DNA of 64,000 bases from Kofleriaceae bacterium (GTDB taxonomy: Bacteria; Myxococcota_A; Polyangia; Haliangiales; Haliangiaceae): assembly GCA_965215005.1 (NCBI GenBank), contig CBDCCZ010000023.1, forward strand, positions 1 to 64,000, given 5' to 3'. Positions 11,583 to 37,827 of this stretch are shown here, in pieces. The translations under genes and the position numbers were made by a program. Under the pieces are notes generated by a model, which was given only the letters and a program-made list of their open reading frames with translations, had not been told where the DNA came from and ran no database searches. How positions within the stretch are numbered: position 1 is the first letter of the stretch; each line of letters starts with the position of its first letter.

Positions 11583-11892
11583 CCTAGGAGATACGGGGCC
11601 GGGCGCTGCCGATCAAGTTTCTATCGATCCGCAAGCTGGCTCGCAAATGCGTGCTTTGGAGTCTCCGACGGAGACCTACGATGGCGCCGCCGTCGGCGAC
11701 AGGAACCGATGAGCGGCACCAGGCGACATTTCCATCGCTACATCCCTCACCCCGGCAGAGTGATCACTACAGACTAGAGGCTCGATTTCTGGCTCGTCGG
11801 TTGATGTGCGCCGTTGCAGGAACGCTACGCTGGAGCAGACTTAACTGCCCAAATGCGATTTGTTGCGATCGCCACCAACATTCGAATTGTTG

Positions 11893-13659
11893 ATGATTGG
11901 CGTGTTTCAACGCACGATCGCTACCGTGCGCTCTAGCAGCGATTCGGTCGACGCAAGCAACCACCTCGCTCCTGGGATGCGCCTTGGTCGCTATGAGCTG
12001 ATTCGTCGGCTCGCCGTCGGTGGCATGGCCGAGCTGTACTTGGCGCGCGCCCGCGGCATCGAAGGGTTCGAGAAGATCGTCGTGCTCAAGCGAATCCTGC
12101 CGCAGTTCGCCCAAAGCAGCGACTTCGTGGGCATGTTCCTCGATGAGGCGCGGCTCTCGGCGACGCTGCAGCACCCCAACATCGCGCAGGTCTACGATAT
12201 TGGCCAGTGGAGTGGCAGTTACTTCTTCACGATGGAGTACGTCCGCGGCGAAGATCTGCGGGCAATCCTCAAGGCCATCGCTCGCAGCGGACGCCGGCTG
12301 CCGCTGCAACACATGCTCACGATCGTGGCGGGCGCCGCCGCGGGACTGCACGCTGCGCACGAGCGCCGCGACGACGAGGGCCGCTCGCTCGGTATCGTTC
12401 ACCGCGATGTGTCGCCTTCGAACGTGCTGGTATCCTATGACGGCGCCGTGAAGCTGGTCGACTTCGGTGTCGCCAAGGCCGCGCAGCGGCAAAGCGAGAC
12501 CCGCGCGGGTACTCTCAAAGGCAAGATCGCGTATATGTCGCCGGAGCAGTGTCTGTGCAAGCCGCTCGATCGGCGCAGCGATGTGTTTGCACTGGGCATC
12601 TTGCTGTACGAGCTCACGACCGGCCGACGCCTGTTCAAAGCCGATAGCGATTTCGAGGCGATGAATCGCATCGTCGCCGGCGACATGGTGCCGCCCACGG
12701 CGGTGCTGCCAAAGTATCCCAAGCGACTCGAAGCCATTGTGCTCAAAGCACTGCAGCGCGAGCCCAGCGGCCGCTACGCCACCGCACAAGACCTGCAGCT
12801 GGCGCTCGAAGAGTTTGCTGGTGAGCACCGCCTGCACTTATCCACCGTCAAGCTCGGGCAGTTCATGCGCGAGCTGTTCGTCGAACAGATGCAGGTCGAG
12901 GAGGCGCGAGCGATAGGACGCGCGCGTACCGAGGTTCTCGAAGGGCCGCCAGGGGTGGATACGCACTCGCCGCCGGGGCGCGATACCGGCAGCTTCGAGC
13001 TCGACACCGCCGGAGACGACAGCGGCGAGGTCGACATCGAGATCGAAGAGGGCTCGGCGGCAGCCGCCGCCGGCTTGCAACGCGGTGGCGACCGCGTGCC
13101 GCGTCGGCGTTGGCCGGTGCTGCTCGGTGTGCTCGCGGCGGCAGCGGGCGTCCTGCTGGCAATCGGACAGCTTGGCTCGCAGGACCATACGAGCGTGCCG
13201 GAAGCGACGATGCAAACGCCGGCGGCTACGAGCGGCACGGAAGGCTTTGGCGCAGCCAGCGAAGCGCTGGATCTCAGCGCCGCCGATCACGGCCCTGCGG
13301 CGGGCGAAGCGGCCATCGCTAGCGAGCCCGGCGTTGCGCCCACGGCCGCAACCGACGCCGAAGCGCCCATCGAGGGCGAGCGTCCCGATCCTGCGGTCAC
13401 AGCGACCGCTGCGCAGGAACGCGCCGCTGGAGATGATGACGCAAAGCGCGAGCGCGCCGCTCGAGACGACGCGGCAACGCGCGAGCGGCGGGAGGAATCG
13501 CGACGAGCGCCGCGCAGCAGCGACAGCCGTGAAGCCGAGCGAGCACGGCGCAAGCCATCTCGACGAGGCCGCGACACCTCGAGCAGCGATCCTGCACCAA
13601 CGACCCCGCCTAGCTCCGTCGATCTCGACTCGCCGTTGCCGCCGCCGCTCCGACGATGA
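11893..13659 (+). CDS. Membrane Ser/Thr protein kinase
   Basis: LAVGGMAEL, VVLKRI, HRDVSPSN, DFG and YMSPEQ motifs; TM helix then low-complexity tail; start uncertain (11893-11977). Confidence 0.93.
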   Translation: MIGVFQRTIATVRSSSDSVDASNHLAPGMRLGRYELIRRLAVGGMAELYLARARGIEGFEKIVVLKRILPQFAQSSDFVGMFLDEARLSATLQHPNIAQVYDIGQWSGSYFFTMEYVRGEDLRAILKAIARSGRRLPLQHMLTIVAGAAAGLHAAHERRDDEGRSLGIVHRDVSPSNVLVSYDGAVKLVDFGVAKAAQRQSETRAGTLKGKIAYMSPEQCLCKPLDRRSDVFALGILLYELTTGRRLFKADSDFEAMNRIVAGDMVPPTAVLPKYPKRLEAIVLKALQREPSGRYATAQDLQLALEEFAGEHRLHLSTVKLGQFMRELFVEQMQVEEARAIGRARTEVLEGPPGVDTHSPPGRDTGSFELDTAGDDSGEVDIEIEEGSAAAAAGLQRGGDRVPRRRWPVLLGVLAAAAGVLLAIGQLGSQDHTSVPEATMQTPAATSGTEGFGAASEALDLSAADHGPAAGEAAIASEPGVAPTAATDAEAPIEGERPDPAVTATAAQERAAGDDDAKRERAARDDAATRERREESRRAPRSSDSREAERARRKPSRRGRDTSSSDPAPTTPPSSVDLDSPLPPPLRR

Positions 13660-16582: not shown

Positions 16583-18676
16583 CTAGGGCGAGGAATCGAG
16601 CGGCTCGGTGTCGTGAAATCTCGTGTAGTCGATGAGCATGCGGCCATCGGGCAGCTCGCTGATCACGTCCACGAAGCGGGCGTCGACGCGCAGATCGTCA
16701 GGCCCATAGATGTGCCGGGAATAGACAGTCTGGCCGTAGGTGCCATCGTGTCCGAGCATGGTCACGATGATGGCGGCGATGCTGCGGCTCGGCTGCTGCC
16801 AGTCGATTCCATTGAGCGGGCTGGCTTCATCGATCTCGTGCATCACGGTCCAGCTCAGCGTGAACAGCGGTGAGCGATCGCGCACCAAGCGCAAGTCGCG
16901 CATGCGCCGCAGGTGCTCGCCTTCAGGAGTAAGCTCATCGCGCAACACCGTCACCGTGAGCGCCGCTTCGACCACGTCGTTGCCGCGCGCGTTGCCGACG
17001 CGAAATGACAGCACCGGCTTGGCGTTGCGCTGGGTCACCACGGCGACATTGCTAAACAACATGCTGGCTTGCGGGCGCGAGGCCTTGGCGAACATCAGCC
17101 CGGTCGCGAGTGCCACCAGAAGCATGCCGGTGGCCGCTTCGAGCGTGACGATGCCGTGACCGTAGTCGGTGACCGGATGCATGGCACCAAAGCCGATGGT
17201 CGAGAGCGTCTGCACGCTAAAGAAGAACGCATCGCCAAACGAGTCGCTGGCGACATTGGCAACGCATCCCGGTCGCAAGCTATAGAGCGCCGCGAAGAAC
17301 ACGTTGACCATCAGATAGGTGAAGCTCAGCGCCGCCAGCAGGCGTTTCCAGCTGCCTTCCATGAAGTAGAAATAGACGTCGCGGCGCAAGGCCGCAGGAG
17401 CGCCTTTACGCAGCGCTTCACCGATGCGTGGCCGCTGATGCCGCACCTCCTGCCCGCTCGCCGCCCGTCGTGCCAGCTCTGCCGTGGTCACGCCGTGCTC
17501 CTCCGCGTGCTCCGGCCCCGACTCGAGCGGCGCCATCATCATGTCGAGCACCACTTGCGCGACGCACACCGCTGCTACCAAGGCCAGAAACATTCCCGCG
17601 CTCATGCCCGCCCCCGCCGGAGCGAGCAGCAGCATGAGCAGTGCCGAGGCCAACCGCACGTTGACGCGTAAGCGATCACTGAGCTCTGCGTGCCGCCGCT
17701 CGGTGACCGAGTCGACGATGGCGACCGCCAAGAACGTAAGCGCGAGCGAGCCCGCGAGGAGCCAGCGGTAGGCGGCTGGCGCCAGCTCCATGAGCTCGAA
17801 ATGGACCGCTTTCTTGATCCCAACGCCGACCGCGGTGGCGCCGAGCTGCAGCGGCAGATGGCCGTAAAGCCACACCACTGGGGCGAAGCGCTCGCGGCGC
17901 ACCCGCGAGCCCGCCACGTCGTCGAAGTAGATCCACCACAAGCAGCACGTGATGAGGAGCGTCATCGACGCCTGCAAGATGAGCATGGGCCCGGTCGAGC
18001 TCGATAAGCTCGAGAGCACCTTCACGAACGACTCGCCGAGCACGATGAGCGTGAGGAGCCCGTAGCGCTCGCTCAGATGCTCCTGGTCGATGGGCTGGGC
18101 CTGGTTCAGCTCTCGCGACTGCTTGCTCAGAGGCGCAAACAGCACCAGCAGAACCGCCACTGCACCGCCGATAGGCCAATACGGCGGCGGCACCCACGCG
18201 GTTGCCGCCGCCACCAGCGCGCTGGCCAAGAACACCCGTCCCCAATACGCGCTGTAATCGCGGCTGGCCGGAACCTGCCGCCAGGTGCGGTAGTAGAGAG
18301 CGGCTACCACGACTTGAGCGACAGCAAAACTGCTCAAGAACAGCATCGGCGCGCCAGCGAGCGCCGCGGGGGCCGTGACGGCCATCGCTCCCACCGCAAA
18401 CATCTGCAAGAACACCAGTAGGCGGTGAGTGAAGTCGTCGACGATGAAGCGATTTTCGAAGAACGTAAACCCAGTCCAAGTGATCCACAGCGGCGCAAAG
18501 ATGCCTGCGAAGGCCAGAAATCCAGCTGGATTGATTTGATCGCTCAAGCCGTTGCCGAGCTGGATGAACGAGGCCACGAAGATGAGGTCGTAGAAGAGCT
18601 CGAGCCACGTAACCTTCTTCTCCACCCCGTCTCGCGGCACGTGCAAGATGGGAACGTGAAACCATCGGCTGCGCAT
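16583..18676 (-). CDS. Fusion of low-temperature-requirement protein A (LtrA) and a KirBac-type inward-rectifier K+ channel
   Basis: N-half VTWLELFYDLIFV...HLSERYGLLTLIVLGE (LtrA); C-half FFFSVQTLSTIGFG filter, FRVGNARGN and SWTVMHEIDEASPL (Kir cytoplasmic domain); one open frame. Confidence 0.88.
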   Translation of the reverse strand: MRSRWFHVPILHVPRDGVEKKVTWLELFYDLIFVASFIQLGNGLSDQINPAGFLAFAGIFAPLWITWTGFTFFENRFIVDDFTHRLLVFLQMFAVGAMAVTAPAALAGAPMLFLSSFAVAQVVVAALYYRTWRQVPASRDYSAYWGRVFLASALVAAATAWVPPPYWPIGGAVAVLLVLFAPLSKQSRELNQAQPIDQEHLSERYGLLTLIVLGESFVKVLSSLSSSTGPMLILQASMTLLITCCLWWIYFDDVAGSRVRRERFAPVVWLYGHLPLQLGATAVGVGIKKAVHFELMELAPAAYRWLLAGSLALTFLAVAIVDSVTERRHAELSDRLRVNVRLASALLMLLLAPAGAGMSAGMFLALVAAVCVAQVVLDMMMAPLESGPEHAEEHGVTTAELARRAASGQEVRHQRPRIGEALRKGAPAALRRDVYFYFMEGSWKRLLAALSFTYLMVNVFFAALYSLRPGCVANVASDSFGDAFFFSVQTLSTIGFGAMHPVTDYGHGIVTLEAATGMLLVALATGLMFAKASRPQASMLFSNVAVVTQRNAKPVLSFRVGNARGNDVVEAALTVTVLRDELTPEGEHLRRMRDLRLVRDRSPLFTLSWTVMHEIDEASPLNGIDWQQPSRSIAAIIVTMLGHDGTYGQTVYSRHIYGPDDLRVDARFVDVISELPDGRMLIDYTRFHDTEPLDSSP

Positions 18677-18849
18677 GCCGCCAGCATCCACGTGTTGGAA
18701 TTGGCGGTCGACCCATCGGGCGGGCAAAGCGCCGCGGCCTGCCCAAATGCACAGGCCCGGCCGCAACGGAGATGCATAGCGAGCGAGGCGCCGAGACTCC
18801 AGCATGGCCGCGCTGCTCGACGCTTGCCGTGGCTCCCTCGCCGATTGCT

Positions 18850-19994: not shown

Positions 19995-20942
19995 GTGCTG
20001 TTCGCGATAGGTGACGTTCATGGCTGTGCAGCCGAGCTGCGAATGCTGCTCGACAGGCTGCCCATTCACGCCGAAACCACCGTCGTCTTCGTCGGCGACT
20101 ACATCGATCGCGGCCCCGACTCGCGCCAGGTCATCGACGTCCTCTTGGAGCTGGGTCAACGTTGCAACGTGGTCTGCTTGCGCGGCAACCACGAGGCCAT
20201 GCTACTGGCGTTTCTCGAGGACCCAGAGTCGAACATGGCTGGCCTGTTCATCTACAACGGCGGCAGCGCGACCCTCGCCAGCTACGGCGACTCCGAAGGC
20301 AATTACGAGATCCCAACCAGCCATCGCCGGTTCTTCTCCGAGCTGCGTGTCTCTTATGAAGACCCGCAGGCATTCTTTGTTCACGCGGGCGTCCCCGACA
20401 TGCCGCTGAGCGAGCTCGATGAGAATCGCGACGGCCATAAGATGATGTGGATGCGAGGCGCGTTCTTGACCAGCACCTACGACTGGGGCAAGCCGATCGT
20501 TCACGGTCACACGCCGGTCACCGACGTGCAGCTGGCGCCCAACCGCATCAACGTCGACACCGGGTGCGTGTTCATGCATCGGCTGTCGGCGGTGTCGCTG
20601 CCCAGCCGCGAGGTCATCTCGGTACGCCGGCGGCAGCGACGGATGACGCCCTCGCTGCGCGACTCGCGCTCGTCGCGACAGGCGGTGCGGTTTCGCGGCC
20701 GAGTTGCGGTGCGAGTGGTCCGGGGCGACACGGTGATTCAGCTAGAGACGCTCGACTACAGCCCCATTGGCATGCTCGCGCGGCTGCTGGTACCGCAGCA
20801 GCATTGGGCCTTCGGCGAGCATGAAACCGTGCAAGGCCTCATCGGCAACGACGGCGGCGACGTGGTCGCGTTCACTGGCGTGGTGGTGCGGCGCGAGCGG
20901 CGCGACGAAGGCGAGTGCTACGGCATTCGCATTCTGCCGTAG
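19995..20942 (+). CDS. PPP-family metallophosphoesterase with C-terminal PilZ domain
   Basis: GDVHG, GDYIDRG, GNHE, HAG, HGHTP, DTG motifs; C-terminal RQAVR...DYSPIG. Confidence 0.9.
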
Positions 20943-21038: not shown

Positions 21039-22135
21039 ATGAGTGGACCGACGTACTGGGATTATTTGCAGCTCGATAAGCTCCTCACGCTGCAGGGCGG
21101 GCTGGAGGACAGCGAGTCCCAGCTGATGCCCGATGAGCTCCACTTCATCATCGTGCATCAGGCCTTCGAGCTCTGGTTCAAGCTCTCGCTGCGCGAGCTG
21201 CGACTGGCGCGCGACCATCTCGCCGCGCCGCTCGTCGCCGAAGAAAACATCCCGTACGTGGTCCACCACCTGCGTCGGGTCAGCGCCATTCTCGAGCTCA
21301 CGGTCGACCAGTTTCGCGTCATGGAAACGCTCACCCCGCAGGATTTCTTGGCGTTCCGCGACAAGCTCGTGCCCGCGAGCGGCTTCCAATCGTTTCAAAT
21401 GCGCGAAATCGAAATCCTGCTCGGGCTCGATGATGCGCAGCGAGTGAGCTATGCCGGCGTCGATCCGCTCGATCACATCCGCCGGCTCGCGAGTGGCTCC
21501 CCGGCCGGCAAGCTGGCGTGGGAACGCATCAGCCGCGCGCGCAGCGAAGGAAGCCTGCGGCAAGCCCTGCACGAGTGGCTGTATCGCACGCCGGTGCAAG
21601 GATCGCGGCCCGGCGATGCCGACGACGATGCCGTCATCGAGCGCTTCATAGAGACCTATTTGCACACGCTCGCACAGCTAAACCGCGAGAAAATCGACCG
21701 GCTGGTCGGCGCGCTCGGCGCGCCTCGGGAGTCCATTCGGGCGCAGGTCGAGTCCTCGGAAGAGCAGGCTTGCGCGTTCTTGCGGGCCACCGACGTCGAC
21801 GAAGCCGAGCGCGCTCGGATGCGCCGCGTTCGCGCCGGCGTGCTGTTCATCGAGAGCTATCGCGAGCTGCCGCTGCTTGCGTGGCCGCGGCTATTGATCG
21901 ACGCCGTGGTCGAGCTCGAAGAGCAGCTGGTGTTATTTCGCTCGCGGCACGCCCGGATGGTCGAGCGCATCATCGGTCGCCGCATCGGCACCGGGGCTCT
22001 ACCGGCGTCGACTATCTCGATAAAACCGCGCATTATCGAATCTTTCACGAGCTCTGGGCAGTGCGCACGCTGCTTGTCACCAAAGCCGACTTGCCAACGC
22101 TCGAGCGTCCCGAAGTCTACGGCTTTGCCAGCTGA
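21039..22135 (+). CDS. kynA: Tryptophan 2,3-dioxygenase (one-base frameshift at ~21993-21996, probably a sequencing error)
   Basis: TYWDYLQL, DELHFIIVHQAFELWFK, PASGFQSFQMRE, RHARMVERIIG; adding one G restores GTGGSTGVDYL...IFHELWAVRT. Confidence 0.92.
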
Positions 22136-22152
22136 GTCGTGCGAAGGCGCAA

Positions 22153-22932
22153 TCACTCTCCGCGGCCGCGGCGGCTCTTGGGTTTGCGCGCCTCGTCGTT
22201 GCGACCCGGGATGAGCGCGAGCGCGGCCAGCTCACGCAAACGCTCGAGCTGGGCGTCGGCGTACACCGGCGAGATGGCCGCGGCACGCTCGAGCAGCGCG
22301 ACGGCAATCGCCTCGCCATTGTAGGGGCCGACCTCCGAAGGCAGGCGATCGCGAGCTTGCGCGAGGCGTAGCGCAGCGTGCAGCTCCGCGCGCAGGCGCC
22401 GATGGCGACGCACCCGAGCGTGGGCCCGAAGGCGGCGTTGGGCGCTCGGGCTGGCGGCCGCCCCCGGCCGCGCATTGTCGAGGGCCGTCTGCCGCGCCGA
22501 GGAAGAACGCCGCACAGCGACGGTGGGAATCGCGATGAGCGGTCGCAACACCGCCGCCGCGGTGGGCGACGGGCGCCGCTGCCAGCGACGGCCAACCCGC
22601 AGCACCGCGACGTAGTCGCCGCGCGCCATCGCAGCGTGCACGCTGTCGCCGACCTGGGCGCGACTACTGCCAAGGAGCTGCTGTGCCGCCTGCTCCGCGG
22701 CCTGATGCCGCTCACTCAGCTCCTCGAGCCGCGTTCGCACCCGAGCGAGGAGGCGCTGCCGCGCTGCGCCCCGCCGCGCGGCAGCACGCTCTAGCAGCGC
22801 CGCCGCAAATCCCCACGACGGGCCATCGAAGACACGCGCCCCCGCCCGCTCGAGCTCGCGCAGCCGGCGGCGCAGCATCTCGACCTCACCGCTCACCGCG
22901 TCCCGCCAGGATGACCGCTCACGCGGCCTCAT
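22153..22932 (-). CDS. DUF2894-like protein (ZorG-like)
   Basis: C-terminal LPSEVGPYNGEAIAVALLE.AAAISPVY...LERL resembles the DUF2894 'P.naGPlN....L..l..lSP.Y' motif; start 22932 or 22896. Confidence 0.65.
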   Translation of the reverse strand: MRPRERSSWRDAVSGEVEMLRRRLRELERAGARVFDGPSWGFAAALLERAAARRGAARQRLLARVRTRLEELSERHQAAEQAAQQLLGSSRAQVGDSVHAAMARGDYVAVLRVGRRWQRRPSPTAAAVLRPLIAIPTVAVRRSSSARQTALDNARPGAAASPSAQRRLRAHARVRRHRRLRAELHAALRLAQARDRLPSEVGPYNGEAIAVALLERAAAISPVYADAQLERLRELAALALIPGRNDEARKPKSRRGRGE

Positions 22933-24541
22933 GAGCTCGAGGGCGATCGCTGGCGGGCGGCGGCGCTGGCAGGGCCGCGCGCAGGCTGCGGAGCTGGTCG
23001 AATAGCTCGCGGTGAAACACCAGCTGCTGCGAAAACAGCTCGTGGGTGGCACTGAGCTGCTCTGCCAGGACATCGGCGGCTGCGTGCTCACCCGCCTCTT
23101 GCACCGCGGCCTCGACCGCACCGAGTGACTCGAGCCAGAAATTCGCGGCGCTGCGGTGCCGATCGACCGACTCGGCAAACATTTCCGCCGCCGCCGACAG
23201 CTCCCCGCCGCCAGCACGCACCGCCTCGGACGCCTCTTGCGCCGACTCTACCGCTGATCGCACCGCTGTTGTCAGCCCGCTTCCGAGCTCATCGAGCCGC
23301 GCTGCCGCGGCGTCAAAAGCCGCCTTGTGCATCATCAACAGCCGTCGCTCCAGCGCCTCCTGCGCCTCGGAGTGACCCGCGGCAACCTCGGCAAGTGAGC
23401 TGCCCGCAAACGCGAGCTGACCGATGCCATCTTCGATCTGCGCCGCTCGTGCTTCGGCGGCGCCCGTGATCAGCTCGGCCGCCTCCGATTGCCGGTCCAC
23501 CGCCGCGACGAGCGCCTCGACCGCCGCTTGCAACGCACTGGTCGCGCCGCTGAGCTCGGCGCCCCGCGCCTCGGTTGCTATCGCACCCGCCTCGGCTTGC
23601 GCCCGCAGCGACGCCGCAACGCCGCCGAGCTCTGCGGCGACCTCGCCGAGCGCTTGCGCGTCCATCGCCTGCTCGCGCTGCCGCTGCTGTTCGGCCCGCT
23701 CGAGCTGCTCGAGAAGCGCGCGCGAACCGTCCTCCAGCCGCCGCACGGCAGCATCGTGGAGCTCTTGCCTCTGCGCCTCGAGGCCCTCTTCGTTGGCGGC
23801 ACCCGCCTCCCTCACCTGCTCGAGATGCGCTTGCAGCCCGCGGCCAAGACCTTGCAGCTGCTCGGCGACGCCATCCAGAAGCTGCTTTGTAGCGGCGCCA
23901 CGCGCCTCCGCCGCCGCAAGCTCGCGCGCCACGGCCCGATTTTCGACGGCCTCAACGGCACCAGGCAGCGCCGCCAGCTCGCGTATCGCCGCCTCCAGCG
24001 ACGACAGCCCCGATCGCAACACCTCTTGCTGTTCCCGAGCGGCTGGCCCCGCCGCCGACACACGCTGCTCCTGGCCGCGCACCAACGCGGCCGCCAGAGC
24101 CGCCAACCCACTCGCAATCGCCCCGGTCAACGCCACGGCCGCCGCCGCGCCCAGCGCCGGCGCCATCGCCGCACCGTGCAGCGCCGGCGCGAGCGCGAGC
24201 GCCGTGCCGGTCAAAGCGAGCACCAGCAGCGCCGCCACAACTGCCGCGCCGACCATCGCGGCCCCCACGGCCGCCGGGCCGTCATGAGCTCCCGCGCGAA
24301 CCAGCGCCGCCGCTCGGCGGCTGAGCCACCCGCCGGCGCCCATCATCGTGATGGCCATCGCCACGAGGACCGCGGTGATGGCCGCGGCAACCCCGGCGAG
24401 CAGCACCGCCACCACCACGATCCCCGCCGCGCCCAACAGCCAGATCGCGGTGACCCAAGCGGCGAGCGCAGACCCGCTGGCGTTTTTGACCTTGCCCGCG
24501 GCGCCTGGCGAGTCAGCGCTGGTTTGCTCGGCTGCGCTCAT
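22919..24541 (-). CDS. DUF802-like membrane protein with long coiled-coil tail (ZorA-like)
   Basis: ~4 hydrophobic helices followed by ~380 aa Ala/Glu-rich coiled coil; C-terminal FAESVDRH...LAEQLSATHELFSQQLVFHRELFDQL resembles the DUF802 protein C-terminus. Confidence 0.7.
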   Translation of the reverse strand: MSAAEQTSADSPGAAGKVKNASGSALAAWVTAIWLLGAAGIVVVAVLLAGVAAAITAVLVAMAITMMGAGGWLSRRAAALVRAGAHDGPAAVGAAMVGAAVVAALLVLALTGTALALAPALHGAAMAPALGAAAAVALTGAIASGLAALAAALVRGQEQRVSAAGPAAREQQEVLRSGLSSLEAAIRELAALPGAVEAVENRAVARELAAAEARGAATKQLLDGVAEQLQGLGRGLQAHLEQVREAGAANEEGLEAQRQELHDAAVRRLEDGSRALLEQLERAEQQRQREQAMDAQALGEVAAELGGVAASLRAQAEAGAIATEARGAELSGATSALQAAVEALVAAVDRQSEAAELITGAAEARAAQIEDGIGQLAFAGSSLAEVAAGHSEAQEALERRLLMMHKAAFDAAAARLDELGSGLTTAVRSAVESAQEASEAVRAGGGELSAAAEMFAESVDRHRSAANFWLESLGAVEAAVQEAGEHAAADVLAEQLSATHELFSQQLVFHRELFDQLRSLRAALPAPPPASDRPRAHEAA

Positions 24542-25401
24542 GCGTCTTGTCCTTCGCTAATCAAGGTTTCCGTGGCCAGCTCTTCGGCGGCTGTGACCAG
24601 CCCCTCGAGCGCGCGCGCCTCATGCCGGCACACCGCCACGATGGCGTCGCGGCACATGGCGATGTGTTGCCGCATCCAGCCGCCCGGCGCGTGCCACGGC
24701 TCGAGGTCCCGCGAGGTCCACGCCTCGGGGAGCGCTGCGATGGCGGCTTGTAAGCGGGCGACGAAGCGCCGATGGAGCTGCAGAGGAATGCGCTCAAACA
24801 GTTGCCGAGCGCGCGCCTCGGTCGCTTGCCGAAGATTGTTGTCGAGGCGCTCGAGGTACGCGGCCGCTTCTCCGAGCCGTCGCAAGTCCGCCGCGAGCTG
24901 CTCGCGCACCTGTTCGGTTCCGCCGCGCGCGATGCTGATGCGCTGGCCGATGCCGCGATGAAATTCGCCGGCAATTTCGTCGGCGGCGGCCGCCAGCGCC
25001 GACGGCGTGCGCGGCAACCCGCCATCGAGCAGCACCGCGTAGGTGATGGGCGTGTCGGCCATGGCGTAGCGGCCATGGAAGGGATCGCGCAGCGTGCGGG
25101 TGGCGGTGAGCTCAACGGCGCGGAGCCGCCAACGCCAGCTGAGCTGCTCCTGCCCATCGCGACGCTCCGGGGTCGGCGGCACGGCAACCAGGTCCAGAAA
25201 CTCGGCCATGCGTACGCTGCCGTGGAGCTGCAGCAGCCAACCGCACAGCTCAATCGGCGTGCACGCATCGGCGTCAGCGGCCGCTGCAGACGACTGCAAC
25301 GGCGGCCACACTTCGTTCACAGGCGATTCGCTAGACGTGGTTCTCAGATTCATGGCTGGCTCCGGCAAGGCACGACGCGACTCCTCCATGCGACGCGGCA
25401 C
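24538..25401 (-). CDS. DUF3348-like protein (ZorF-like)
   Basis: C-terminal LFERIP..LHRRF...PGGW......C...[15 protein letters not shown] resembles DUF3348; ATGA overlap with the next gene; start uncertain (25401/25389/25353). Confidence 0.6.
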
Positions 25402-25451
25402 CCTACCCTGGGCCTCTGACGTTCACCGCTCCGCCATGGCATCCTGGCGCC

Positions 25452-27263
<1,812 letters not shown>

Positions 27264-33225: not shown

Positions 33226-36200
33226 TCAATAAGGTATGAGTCGATAGGCCTGGACCGATCGCACCCATGGGTGGTCGGCCAGGCCTTCTCGATATTCGCT
33301 CGGCACTGCCGCAATCCACGCTGCGGCTTCTTCTTGCGCAACCGCCAAGCTCGCGCGCGAGCTCGTTTGCTGGCCGAGCTTGTGAAACAGACGCGAGCGG
33401 ATGTCTTCGATTCGGCAACGGCTGCTGCCATCGCTCGCGCCCGGGCTCAGCTGCAAGAACTTCACGATGAGCCAGTCGGGGGCGCTATCGGAGTGCACCG
33501 CGAAGCCATTGGCGAGGTCCAGGAGCGCGTCGGTGTAGCCGGGACGTGTCCAGCGATCGGGCTCGGAGAGGAGCTCCACCGCCGACTCGAGCCGCCCAGC
33601 GATGACATCGGCGAGCACCTGCGCTTGGTCGAGAAAGCGCGGCACGCCCATCGGCCGAAGGTCGTGACAGGCCTGATCGGCGATGGCAGAAGCCTCTTCT
33701 GGCTGCCCCGTGCTCCACCGCACCCGCGCGAGCGCCAAGGTCGCCAAGAGCCGGCGATCTGGATCCGCCTCGCGATGGCGAAAGTACTCGAGCCAGGCCG
33801 CCGCCTCGGCGTAGTGCCCCATCTTCATTTGAATGAGCGCATGGCTGAGCGTGACGCCCTCGCCGACCTCGACGGCACGCTCGAGCGCGGAAAACGCCTC
33901 TTGATAGGCACCCGAGGCCCACTTCGACTCTGCCACCAGGCCGCGATACAGCGCTTCCTTCTGGGCCGCGTTGACGCGCGCGCACAGCTCGGCAGCGGCG
34001 GTGAGAAGCCGCTGCGCGGCCTCCTCATTGCCTTCGCTGCGCTCCAGGTCCGCCAGCGCCTCCTGACAGAGCGTCACGGTAACCCAGTCGGTGCGCGCGC
34101 GATCGAGGACCTCGTCGAGAAGCGGCCGGGCGCTGGCAAAGTCGCCGAGCACGTGAAAGAACGTGCCGACATTGAGGGTTGCGGCCACCAGCCGCGAGTG
34201 ATGACCAACGCGCTGATAGATCTCCCGCGCTTCGAGAGTTTTCTCGATGGCTTCGGCGATCTTCCAGCGGCGAAACAGCGACATTCCGATGTTCATCAGG
34301 CAGTTAGCGCGAAGCAGCTCATCGGCGGTCCGTTCCGCGGTCGCTAGAGCATCGGCATAGAGCGCTTCGGCTTGCTCGAGGTGGTTCTGCATGAGAAACA
34401 CATTCGCCAGCCGCCACACGCTCCAGCCCACCCCCGCGCTGTCGCGGCTGAGCGTGATGGCGCGCAGCGCATACTCCAGCGCCTTCTTGCGCGCGCCCAC
34501 CGTCTCAAACTCGAGATAAATTCCCGCCAGCGCGGTGCACGCTTGCGCCTCGAGATCTTCGGCACTCACCTCGCGAGCCAGTTTTCTGGCCCGTTGAGCG
34601 AGTGCGCGCGCCGCATCGAGCGCCGCTTCAGCCTCGGTTCGCCGCCGCAGCGCCGCCGCCTCCAAGAGAATCTCGACGCCGAGGCGACTGCGCAGCCCGT
34701 CGGCTCCGAGCTCCTCCTGCGCACGTGTGAGATCATCGAGAGCCAGGTTGCGCTCGCCGATCGGCTCCCGCGAGCGCGCGAGCAGAAGTCGCGAGCGGGC
34801 AGCGTCAATTGGATGCAGCGAGGCAAACAGGGCCGCGGCGCGCTCGAGAAAGACCACCGCGGTTCCGTACGCATGCGCTTTGGCAGCGGTCTCGCCGGCG
34901 CGACGGTAGTACAGCGCCGCCTTGCCGAGCGCCGCGAGCAAGTCGTCATCGGGACGCGTGGTGCTGAGCGCATCTTGCGCGGCGCGCTCAAACCAGCTCA
35001 CCGCTTGTTCGGCCGCGCCGCCGCCGGCAAAGTGCTCGGCGAGCACCACCGCATCGGTCTCTCCTTGCTCTTGCAGCCAGGCGCCAGCGAGGCGGTGCCC
35101 GGTGGCGCGGTCGCTGTCGGTGAGCATGCCGTAGGCGGCCTCGCGGGTGAGGTCATGGCGAAAGCTGAGCTCGAGCTCGGCGCCGTAACTGCTGCCCAGA
35201 GCACGGGTGGCGATGAGCTCTTCGCGATCGAGCGTGCGCAGCCAGCCCTCGATCTCTCCGCGCGCCAGATCATTGCCCACCAGCGCGGCCACGCCGCCGA
35301 GCCAGAACGAGCGCCCGAAGATGCTCGCAGCGCGCAAGATATGACGCGCCGGCTCGGGCAACCGCGCGATGCGCAGCTGCACGCTGGCCATCACGCTCTC
35401 GGGCAGCGCTTCGAGCTCGCCACCGGCCGCGGCGCGAATGAGCTCCTCGAGGTAGAACGGATTGCCGGCGCTGCGCTCGACCAGGCGACTTCGGGTTCGC
35501 GCGTCGATCCGATCGCCGAGCATCTCGCGCACCAGCTCATCGCTAGCGCCCGGCCGCAGCGGCTCGACGAGGATTTCTTGCCGCTCCCAGTCGCTTGCCA
35601 GGGTCGGGAAGCGCTCGCGAGCCTCAGGTCGTGCCAGCGCCACCACCAGCAGCGGCAAATCAGCGGCGCAGCGCAGCCCCGCGCTGATGAGCTCGACCGA
35701 GGCGGCATCGGCCCACTGCAGATCGTCGACGACCAGCAGCACCGGCCCCGCGGCGCATTGCGCGACGAGCCAGTCCTGCCACGCCCGCCGCTTCTGATCG
35801 GCCATGAGCGCCGCGTCACCGCGGGCGGCGCGCAGCGCGATGCTTTCAGCGGCGGGAAGCTCGATGCCCATCAGCTCGCCGAGAAACTCCGCCACTCGCT
35901 GGTCTTCGGGCGCGGCAATCGAGCGCGAGATGCGCGCGGTCAACGCCGCAGGAGACGTTCCCGCGCCTTCGGCAAGCCCCAGATGGCTGCGCAGCGCTCG
36001 GGCCATCATGCCGTAGGGAACCTGCGCGCGCAGTGCATCGCCCCAGGCAGCAAAAACGGTGAGCGTGGGTTGATCTTGGCGCAGTCGGCGAAGCAGCTCG
36101 GCGTGCACCCGCGACTTGCCGACGCCGGCTTCGCCAAGCAAGACGATCGCGTGCGCGGTGGCGTCATCGATAGTGCCAGCCGCGGCCGCTTCGAGCTGTC

Positions 36201-37827
36201 GCAACAACCGCCCGCGACCCACGCAGGGCGTCGCGCGCCCGAGCAGGGGCCGCGGTGGCTCCTCGGCATCGGGTTGGCGGGCACGCTCGGCGAGTAGTGT
36301 GAAAGGGCCACCGGTTGTCTGCGAGAAGGCGAACTGCATCGGCAGCAGATCGCGCGTGGCGCGATCCATGGCGATGCGGCGGGCGCCCGCTTCCACCAGC
36401 CCGGCGGCGCGATCGATGATGCGACCCACGGCGTCGCGTTCGCTGAGAACGGCGCGATTGGTCGCGACTCCCAGCGAGGCATCGGGAAGCACGCGCGCAA
36501 TCGCCAGCGCGCAGCGCGCCGACCGCGCAGCGAGATCCGTGGCGGCGGCACCGCCCGAGAGCATTGCGACGAACGAGCCATTGAGTAGCACCTCGATGCG
36601 CGCACCGAACGGCTCGAGTGCCTCGCGAAGCGCCGGCAACAGACGCGCGGCTTGCGACGGGCCGCGCACCACCTGCAGCGCGCCCTCCGTGCTGCCGTCG
36701 TCTGCAGGCGCGCGGAGCTCGGCCTGCGTAGTCGCGCCGGTGACACTCACTCGTATCGGCTCCATCGCCAGGGTCTGCGCCAACTCATCTTCGGGGCTCG
36801 GCGCCATCGCGGCGAAGATGATCGACACTGGCTGGAGCTCGCGCGTGGTCAGCGACGGGAACGCCATCACCTCCGAGGTACCGATGGCGCCCCCATGAAA
36901 CATCGCGCGCACGGTGCGTATCGCCTCCGCAGCGCGCGAGCCGTCGCGCGGCCGTCGCGCGGGATCATACGCCATCATCCGCGCCACCAGCTCGTCGACC
37001 GCGCGCGGGATCTCGGGCACCAACGCGCTCACCCGCGGCGGCTCTTCGAACATGGCGATCTTGGCGAGCACCGCCTCGATGCGCTCGCCGCGGAACGCTG
37101 GACGTCCGGTGAGACACTTGAAGAGAATCGAGCCGAGCGCGAAAACATCGGCCGCGGGACCGACCGCGCGATCGCAGCGCGCCTGCTCTGGCGACATGTA
37201 TTCCGGTGTTCCCATCCCCACGCCGGTTGCCGTCACCGGATCCCAGCCGCCGCGGCGCACGATGCCAAAGTCGAGCAGCTTGGGTCGACGCAAATCGCTA
37301 CCGACCAGCAGGACGTTCGAAGGCTTGACGTCGCGGTGAACCATGCCGCGGTCATGAGCGGCACCCAGCCCTTCGGCGATGCGCGCGACGACCGCAAGCG
37401 CTTCATCGACGCTGAGCGGGGTCCTGCGCATGCGCTGCGACAAGGTGATGCCCTCGAGCCATTCCATCGCGATGAAGGCGCGGCCGCCTTCGGTTTCATG
37501 AGCGACATGCCGCACCACGGCTGGATGATTGATCTCGATGAGCGCCCGCGCCTCCATCGCCATCCGCTTGACGAGCGCGGCGTCATCGAACAGCAGCAGC
37601 TTGAGGGCAACGACGCGACCCGTGCGGCGATCGTGGGCGCGATATACGTCGCCCATGCCGCCTCGGGCGACGAAGCGATCGATCTCGAACCGTTCCGCGA
37701 TGAGCTCTCCAGCTTTCCACGTCGAGCCGCGATTCCCCACTCCGGAATAGTACTGCGCAACTACGCAGGAGACACGTTCTAAGGCGGTCGTAGCCGCAGG
37801 CGTCCCGCTCTGGCGCGGCTGTCGCAC
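33226..37827 (-). CDS. Ser/Thr kinase - degenerate cyclase-like - AAA ATPase - TPR multidomain protein
   Basis: HRDVKPSN/DFG/YMSPEQ; Walker A GEAGVGKS, Walker B LLVVDDLQWAD, SAGNPFYLEEL; ~550 aa helical TPR-like C-terminus; start may be GTG 37740. Confidence 0.92.
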   Translation of the reverse strand: MRQPRQSGTPAATTALERVSCVVAQYYSGVGNRGSTWKAGELIAERFEIDRFVARGGMGDVYRAHDRRTGRVVALKLLLFDDAALVKRMAMEARALIEINHPAVVRHVAHETEGGRAFIAMEWLEGITLSQRMRRTPLSVDEALAVVARIAEGLGAAHDRGMVHRDVKPSNVLLVGSDLRRPKLLDFGIVRRGGWDPVTATGVGMGTPEYMSPEQARCDRAVGPAADVFALGSILFKCLTGRPAFRGERIEAVLAKIAMFEEPPRVSALVPEIPRAVDELVARMMAYDPARRPRDGSRAAEAIRTVRAMFHGGAIGTSEVMAFPSLTTRELQPVSIIFAAMAPSPEDELAQTLAMEPIRVSVTGATTQAELRAPADDGSTEGALQVVRGPSQAARLLPALREALEPFGARIEVLLNGSFVAMLSGGAAATDLAARSARCALAIARVLPDASLGVATNRAVLSERDAVGRIIDRAAGLVEAGARRIAMDRATRDLLPMQFAFSQTTGGPFTLLAERARQPDAEEPPRPLLGRATPCVGRGRLLRQLEAAAAGTIDDATAHAIVLLGEAGVGKSRVHAELLRRLRQDQPTLTVFAAWGDALRAQVPYGMMARALRSHLGLAEGAGTSPAALTARISRSIAAPEDQRVAEFLGELMGIELPAAESIALRAARGDAALMADQKRRAWQDWLVAQCAAGPVLLVVDDLQWADAASVELISAGLRCAADLPLLVVALARPEARERFPTLASDWERQEILVEPLRPGASDELVREMLGDRIDARTRSRLVERSAGNPFYLEELIRAAAGGELEALPESVMASVQLRIARLPEPARHILRAASIFGRSFWLGGVAALVGNDLARGEIEGWLRTLDREELIATRALGSSYGAELELSFRHDLTREAAYGMLTDSDRATGHRLAGAWLQEQGETDAVVLAEHFAGGGAAEQAVSWFERAAQDALSTTRPDDDLLAALGKAALYYRRAGETAAKAHAYGTAVVFLERAAALFASLHPIDAARSRLLLARSREPIGERNLALDDLTRAQEELGADGLRSRLGVEILLEAAALRRRTEAEAALDAARALAQRARKLAREVSAEDLEAQACTALAGIYLEFETVGARKKALEYALRAITLSRDSAGVGWSVWRLANVFLMQNHLEQAEALYADALATAERTADELLRANCLMNIGMSLFRRWKIAEAIEKTLEAREIYQRVGHHSRLVAATLNVGTFFHVLGDFASARPLLDEVLDRARTDWVTVTLCQEALADLERSEGNEEAAQRLLTAAAELCARVNAAQKEALYRGLVAESKWASGAYQEAFSALERAVEVGEGVTLSHALIQMKMGHYAEAAAWLEYFRHREADPDRRLLATLALARVRWSTGQPEEASAIADQACHDLRPMGVPRFLDQAQVLADVIAGRLESAVELLSEPDRWTRPGYTDALLDLANGFAVHSDSAPDWLIVKFLQLSPGASDGSSRCRIEDIRSRLFHKLGQQTSSRASLAVAQEEAAAWIAAVPSEYREGLADHPWVRSVQAYRLIPY

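Follow-up and report, generated by a model that had tools for sequence, protein, structure and literature searches.

In the 64,000-nucleotide (nt) stretch of Kofleriaceae DNA analyzed here (hereafter the window), three genes on the minus strand at 22153..25401 form an operon that we interpret, with a probability of about 0.6, as a motor-less derivative of type III Zorya. According to Payne et al. 2021 (PMC8565338), type III Zorya consists of zorAB with a DUF3348 gene on one side and a DUF2894 gene on the other. The order DUF3348-ZorA-ZorB-DUF2894 given in a preliminary description of the window agrees with that text and with the annotated canonical loci in Myxococcota. The operon follows type III Zorya in the order of the shared genes (DUF3348, ZorA-type, DUF2894), in the C-terminal domain of ZorA3, and in having helper proteins of the same families. 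It departs from it in containing three genes instead of four, with no ZorB; in lacking a recognizable MotA-like core of transmembrane segments (TM) 3 and 4 as well as the GLLGTFLG and SFGTS motifs of canonical ZorA3; and in the length of the tail protein, which has 540 amino acids (aa) as compared to 674-1320 aa in the canonical ZorA3 proteins analyzed. Canonical type III Zorya is present in the same phylum and class. Our names follow the PADLOC models, in which the DUF3348 protein is ZorG3 and the DUF2894 protein is ZorF3; the text of PMC8565338 has the names reversed, with ZorF for the DUF3348 protein and ZorG for the DUF2894 protein. The three genes and the parts of the second are the following:

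24538..25401, minus strand: gene 1, ZorG-type protein (diverged DUF3348), 287 aa, GTG start
22919..24541, minus strand: gene 2, ZorA3-derived tail protein with no recognizable motor core, 540 aa, ATG start
24077..24475, minus strand: four to five hydrophobic segments, residues 23-155 of gene 2 (hydropathy, composition)
23381..24076, minus strand: Ala/Glu/Gln/Arg-rich helical tail, residues 156-387 of gene 2 (sequence)
22952..23380, minus strand: ZorA3 C-terminal (tail-tip) domain, residues 388-530 of gene 2 (hhalign, BLASTP)
22153..22932, minus strand: gene 3, ZorF-type protein (DUF2894), 259 aa counted from the ATG at 22932

As first described, the three minus-strand open reading frames (ORFs) are translationally coupled: the stop of gene 1 and the start of gene 2 share an ATGA overlap, and the ATG of gene 3 sits 14 nt inside gene 2. 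Because genes 2 and 3 overlap, there is no gene, and hence no zorB, between them. Gene 1 could also start at either of two in-frame ATGs, at 25389 or 25353. The GC content at the third codon position (GC3) is 0.80-0.87 in the three genes and 0.79-0.85 in the neighboring genes, and the values at all three codon positions, including those of the hydrophobic N terminus of gene 2, are typical of coding sequence in a GC-rich genome.

Gene 2 carries the tail-tip domain of ZorA3

The tie between gene 2 and ZorA lies in its C terminus. When compared by hhalign with nine canonical ZorA3 proteins, only residues 388-530 of gene 2 matched, with a probability of 99.6% (E 6.7e-25, 142 columns). By BLASTP, a motor-bearing ZorA3 of 887 aa with the motifs GLLGTFLG and SFGTSAAG shared 61% identity with the same domain over 122 residues. 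The domain spans ~140 residues with the pattern ...GGxELSAVAEMF...W L..LG..E...FQRELF..LR, which is found in gene 2, and gene 2 scored 178.5 bits in a tip-domain profile search. By these comparisons, the C terminus of gene 2 is clearly a ZorA3 tip domain and gives the gene a true link to ZorA.

The N-terminal part is less easily placed. Hydropathy analysis located hydrophobic segments at residues 23-73 and 87-155, and the region 23-155 is, as judged from its sequence, probably a membrane anchor; canonical ZorA3 likewise has four TM segments, similarly placed. Of the 134 residues in the hydrophobic region, 49 are A, 20 are L, 17 are G, and 16 are V, and the in-frame GC3 of residues 23-155 is 0.87. 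Neither the G..GT[FL].G motif nor any other MotA/ZorA motif was found in the TM region. Composition and motif scan thus bear out the earlier picture of open frames encoding an almost pure Ala/Leu/Val/Gly TM region devoid of MotA-like motifs.

The preliminary description also spoke of an apparently degenerate ZorA. The C-terminal domain upholds the ZorA part of that claim, while the descent of the TM region is left in doubt: a hidden Markov model (HMM) of the motor domain, built from 88 canonical motor domains, gave this region a score of -10.1 bits, segment-preserving shuffles scored -14.3 +/- 3.6, and 38 of 300 shuffles scored as high as the real sequence. Because the TM region does not beat its shuffles, its reading as a degenerate ZorA motor domain is plausible only. 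Two leads, and only leads, point in the same direction. MAFFT aligned LALTGTALAL of gene 2 to LGLLGTFLGL of canonical proteins, and the protein-language-model neighbors of residues 1-200 were MotA/TolQ/ExbB, ZorA, and DUF802 clusters, at 0.82-0.85 and below the 0.9 line of the tool.

Gene 2 matched no Pfam family, including PF01618 (MotA/ExbB/TolQ), and it matched PADLOC ZorA3 only at E 0.49. Its N-terminal TM segments resemble those of the MotA/ExbB/TolQ family in count and placement; gene 2 is unlike that family in lacking a Pfam match, the conserved motifs, and a partner gene of the MotB, ExbD, or ZorB type. The helical tail, shorter than in canonical ZorA3, showed only weak matches of coiled-coil type (Taxilin, JetC).

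Separately, we rejected the label DUF802, which had been proposed for gene 2: PF05650 did not match it at E<=1. The only matches of this model in the genome (E 0.16 and 0.58) lie on other contigs, and the model also had no match in the four canonical ZorA3 proteins scanned (P0008, P0009, P0011, and the G100 ZorA3).

Genes 1 and 3 belong to the helper families of type III Zorya

Gene 3 matched Pfam DUF2894 (PF11445) with 38.2 bits, above the cut-off of 25, and PADLOC ZorF3 (PDLC00652) at E 7e-10, and it retains the near-invariant family residues G202, Y204, N205, and P242. It is thus the DUF2894-family gene expected of type III Zorya. Gene 1 scored 24.4 bits against Pfam DUF3348 (PF11828), 0.6 short of the cut-off of 25, and matched PADLOC ZorG3 (PDLC00657) at E 1e-5. 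In related genomes, the genes that precede canonical zorA3 can be aligned with gene 1 over its length, and a local HMM that includes gene 1 matched ZorG in canonical loci at 1e-21 to 1e-38; we assign gene 1 to the DUF3348 family of type III Zorya. The resemblance of the three genes to DUF3348, DUF802, and DUF2894 that had been proposed therefore stands for DUF2894, stands for DUF3348 with a Pfam score just under the cut-off, and falls for DUF802.

Models built with AlphaFold2 were all-helical for both products. The gene 1 model, in which residues 133-176, 178-222, and 242-286 form long helices, reached a predicted local distance difference test (pLDDT) score of 73.7; the gene 3 model reached 78.6. 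A Foldseek search against the PDB gave no match at E<=1e-3 for either the ZorF or the ZorG model. The top match of ZorF in a wide VIA-align search had a Z of 9.6 and belonged to generic helical bundles, under the noise level for helical proteins. For neither helper did the solved structures include a significant match, so their folds give no evidence of an enzymatic effector.

We then modeled a complex of three chains: the tip domain, residues 83-287 of ZorG, and ZorF as the partner. The binding score of ZorF was 0.72, as compared to 0.03 for the best control and 0.00 for the control in which ZorG was replaced; 116 of 157 solved complexes score this high, as do 2 of 215 mismatched pairs. The prediction runs shared at least 47% of contacts, with a partner pLDDT of at least 62. 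Every confident predicted contact connects ZorF 210-244 to ZorG 179-208 and 260-275. ZorF is thus predicted to bind ZorG. No confident contact between ZorF and the tip domain was listed in this model, which does not disprove a link from the tip to the helpers.

The motor is missing from the window and was not found in the genome

The genome comprises 6.2 Mb in 62 contigs and is 92.8% complete. We scanned all 64 kb in six frames with two local HMMs, one of ZorB (11 ZorB3 proteins) and one of the ZorA3 motor (88 motor domains), and obtained no match at E<=0.01; the same scan did retrieve ZorG, the tip domain, and ZorF in the window. None of the 14 OmpA-domain matches in the genome lies on the contig of the window. 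The statement that the window has no OmpA/MotB gene is thereby confirmed, and there is neither a recognizable MotA-like core in the ZorA-type protein nor a zorB3 next to its gene.

A search for an orphan zorB elsewhere, as had been suggested, found none. Across the genome, PADLOC ZorB3 (PDLC00651) gave only generic matches to the OmpA part, the top one at 77 bits as compared to 223-296 bits for true ZorB3, and the model also gives matches in control genomes, including that of E. coli. PADLOC ZorA3 had no match in the whole genome. The genome contains 11 MotA/ExbB-family (PF01618) genes, all on other contigs, and a single DUF2894 locus.

The earlier concern that an assembly deletion could have removed zorB is answered by a 4270-nt contig that another assembler produced from public run X1. 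It spans 22083-25600 with 0 differences and 0 gaps, at a depth of ~3.5. Run X1 is probably the source sample, and the match tests the assembly, not the biology.

Other loci share the motor-less layout

The preliminary description had allowed for the possibility that close relatives all keep zorB. We found six other loci with ZorG, tail protein, and ZorF genes and no zorB, three of them in Myxococcota genomes (G039, G274, and G016) and three on metagenome contigs (L090, L107, and L108). In a sample of the phylum, DUF2894 was detected in 18 of 401 genomes; 13 of the 18 loci are canonical four-gene loci, 3 lack zorB (this genome, G039, and G274), 1 lies on a contig that is too short, and 1 is a false hit. 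Motor-less loci thus make up 3 of the 16 that could be assessed. A sample of the class had the tip domain in 8 of 401 genomes, with 3 zorB-less loci (this genome, G016, and G039) and 5 canonical ones. ZorB was present in 17 of 18 loci in the genome contig collection, the exception being the contig of G016, a genome of the same family. Among 23 loci on metagenome contigs, 18 have ZorB, 2 end before its position, and in 3 (L090, L107, and L108) the tip domain is directly followed by ZorF.

The two parts of the motor come and go together. Counting the loci in which the ZorA-type N terminus and the interval before zorF are both on the contig, motor core and ZorB were both present in 25 and both absent in 5 (this genome, G039, G274, L090, and L107), with no mixed case; three further partial loci are consistent with the presence of both. 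No second, canonical locus was found in the motor-less genomes examined. The layout of the three genes is kept between loci that are only 29-46% identical. Given that this reduced layout is also present in other bacteria, it probably represents a variant that works and not a wreck. A word-index search with gene 2 returned only 2 relatives, both motor-bearing, and the tip domain of the window as sole query returned none from the genome contig collection.

As an observation on a canonical locus, the gene directly upstream of zorA3 in the zorA3-zorB3-zorF locus of G100 (L042 3650-4834, plus strand) encodes a metallo-beta-lactamase-fold protein and not a recognizable DUF3348/ZorG protein.

The motor-less tail proteins can be sorted into three forms. 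The first, soluble form, seen in G039, G274, and L090, has no TM segment, and its start falls immediately behind the TM4 position. In the hairpin form, represented by L107 and ten database clusters, TM1-TM2 are retained and directly followed by the post-TM4 segment; these proteins match positions ~1-55 and ~201-252 of the motor HMM and skip the channel-forming TM3-TM4 core. The protein of the window represents the third form, with several TM segments but none of the motor motifs. The tip-domain profile search retrieved 536 protein clusters (50% identity). From 152 proteins examined, 45 fragments were dropped beforehand, and the 107 classifiable ones comprised 90 motor-bearing, 10 hairpin, and 6 apparently soluble proteins, several of which may be truncated gene calls, in addition to the protein of the window.

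We further examined how often the motor was lost. On the tip-domain tree, the motor-less forms are scattered among motor-bearing ones, and well-supported branches force at least 8 changes; on this evidence, the motor was likely lost repeatedly. On the ZorF trees, G000, G274, and G016 cluster (97/95, then 88/92) and G039 pairs with a canonical Polyangiaceae locus, and a single clade for all motor-less loci was not rejected (p-AU, from the approximately unbiased test, 0.10).

Selection on the motor-less loci

A comparison of nonsynonymous and synonymous changes (dN/dS) had been suggested as a check against simple decay. We obtained rough estimates by NG86, with dS at 0.75-1.0, near saturation, in codon-biased, GC-rich genes. 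For the pair L090/G274, dN/dS was 0.35 in the tip domain, 0.44 in the tail, 0.40 in ZorG, and 0.58 in ZorF; for L108/L107, it was 0.34 in the C-terminal part of the tail protein and 0.26 in ZorF. The range of the motor-less pairs, 0.26-0.58, falls inside that of nine canonical comparisons (0.12-0.67). Thus, these two related motor-less pairs appear to be under purifying selection and not to evolve neutrally. The check speaks for relatives of the window copy and not for the copy itself, which keeps the family-invariant residues.

In one canonical type III locus, L111, on a 3708-nt metagenome contig, the motor domain is broken up over two or three frames, and so are the tip domain and ZorB. The locus is a genuine array of pseudogenes or else poorly sequenced, and it gives a picture of decay that the motor-less loci do not share.

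Proposed mechanism and alternatives

In our interpretation, the ancestor had four genes, zorG (DUF3348), zorA3, zorB3, and zorF (DUF2894). Its ion-driven stator would have been lost, with zorB gone and the TM3-TM4 channel core of ZorA changed beyond recognition, and a membrane-anchored helical tail, the ZorA3 tail-tip domain, and both helper proteins would have been retained. The tail protein may oligomerize into a coiled-coil scaffold, which would be held at the inner membrane by non-channel TM helices in this genome and be soluble in some relatives. The tip domain would present or regulate the ZorF-ZorG complex, and the module would be either constitutive or triggered by another cue. With the output half kept but the input half shed, namely ZorB together with the channel core, the activity of the module would not need ion flow, peptidoglycan anchoring, or proton-driven rotation. 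Gene content, tip-domain homology, recurrence, and dN/dS together favor the motor-independent or repurposed Zorya derivative that was originally put forward. The operon may have kept an anti-phage role or may have been repurposed, and which of the two holds is more than its sequence can tell.

A broader idea, which we regard as tentative, is that the ZorA tail tip, ZorF, and ZorG constitute an autonomous module that operates without a rotary motor. Canonical type III Zorya would couple this module to the ZorAB envelope sensor, several lineages would have uncoupled it again in three ways, and the resulting loci would be stand-alone defense or signaling systems.

Several points weigh against a working motor-less system. 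According to Hu et al. 2024 (PMC11946911), motor rotation and ZorB are both essential for defense in type I Zorya; because of this, a motor-less system may not defend at all. The ZorF branches of motor-less loci measure 1.55-1.78 as compared to a median of 0.41, which could reflect relaxed or altered constraint. The window copy has no close relative (to G016, ZorF is 36% and the tip domain 46% identical), and its own dN/dS is not measurable. The near-saturated dS of the pairs and the possible truncation of "soluble" database proteins belong on the same side.

One alternative explanation is that the operon is a decaying remnant, in which zorB and the motor core were deleted and the three remaining open genes are nonfunctional leftovers. 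The long terminal branches of motor-less ZorF, the weak HMM scores of genes 1 and 2, the essential motor of type I Zorya, and the scatter on the tip-domain tree, whose forced changes fit repeated loss, would all suit decay. However, the three frames are intact and translationally coupled, the family-invariant residues are retained, and the three-gene layout persists across strongly diverged loci. Furthermore, the two motor-less pairs have dN/dS values inside the canonical range, the truly broken locus L111 looks different, with its domains spread over several frames, and a ZorF-ZorG interface is still predicted for the window copy. We therefore consider decay improbable.

We also consider it unlikely that the motor acts in trans, that is, that the TM helices of the tail protein dock on an unrelated stator of the MotAB, ExbBD, or TolQR type and the system is still ion-driven. 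The MotA/ExbB-family and OmpA-domain genes on other contigs could supply such a stator, and TM helices are kept in the window protein and in the hairpin forms. Yet the tail proteins of G039, G274, and L090 have no TM segment at all in the same operon, none of the 7 motor-less loci has a linked stator gene, and no ZorA3- or ZorB3-type gene was found in this genome. Last, misassembly or binning of a low-coverage metagenome-assembled genome that dropped a real zorB would fit the depth of the spanning contig and the fragmented, incomplete genome, but it is hardly credible given the identical contig from the second assembler, the frame-consistent 14-nt overlap of genes 2 and 3 that leaves no gap for a hidden gene, the motor core that is missing within gene 2 too and that a dropped zorB would not explain, and the six other assemblies with the same layout.

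Relation to known systems and significance

In type I Zorya, as described in PMC11946911, ZorA5B2 is a peptidoglycan-anchored, proton-driven rotary motor whose rotation, driven by the proton motive force, is essential together with ZorB D26 and peptidoglycan binding. The long tail, and specifically its tip, is needed there for the recruitment of soluble effectors, and the effectors ZorC and ZorD are DNA-binding/nuclease proteins. By analogy, the operon may resemble type I Zorya in its overall principle, with a long helical tail that recruits soluble effectors through its distal part. It is unlike type I Zorya in having no stator and in its helpers, which are all-helical with no recognizable enzyme fold. 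For type III, the text of PMC8565338 reports that a four-gene Stenotrophomonas system protects E. coli, this being the only form tested in that text, and it gives no known activity for the helper proteins.

All Zorya systems are said to share ZorA and ZorB (PMC11890865), and our literature search found no description of a motor-less Zorya; supplementary tables, which lay outside the search, might list such loci as incomplete systems. Detection rules that require ZorA and ZorB will miss motor-less loci. The layout recurs and is apparently under purifying selection, which suggests that type III Zorya can dispense with its sensor motor and still retain its output half. The loci offer a small and partly soluble system for working out the roles of ZorF and ZorG, and a natural deletion series for structure-function work, with TM3-TM4 deleted, all TM segments deleted, or the motifs erased. 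If the autonomous-module idea were true, motor-less loci would be a minimal model of type III Zorya action.

Genomic surroundings of the operon

The neighbors of the operon are genes for tryptophan 2,3-dioxygenase, in convergent orientation, and acyl-CoA dehydrogenase, in divergent orientation, in line with the housekeeping flanks reported before; uracil phosphoribosyltransferase, molybdopterin oxidoreductase, and OPT transporter genes lie further out. A promoter scan found no sigma-70-like site. The 3' ends of the dioxygenase ORF (end 22214) and of gene 3 (end 22153) overlap by ~62 nt at 22153-22214. The Pfam match of the dioxygenase ends at residue 322 of 394, which makes its true stop or C-terminal tail uncertain.

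PADLOC, applied to 22 window ORFs (5-42 kb), found no defense genes beyond generic matches of the Ser/Thr-kinase type. Two proteins, encoded at 11860-13659 (plus strand, 599 aa) and 33226-37827 (minus strand, 1533 aa), matched PD-T4-6, mad6, and MkoA through the kinase domain only and are probably ordinary myxobacterial kinases, not defense proteins.

Two further genes of the window encode fusion proteins. A single 740-aa ORF at 16583-18805 (minus strand) joins an LtrA (low-temperature requirement A) domain (64-416) to a Kir-type potassium channel (Ion_trans_2 498-572, IRK_C 583-737), an unusual fusion. At 19995-20942 (plus strand), a calcineurin-like metallophosphoesterase carries a C-terminal PilZ domain and may be controlled by cyclic di-GMP.

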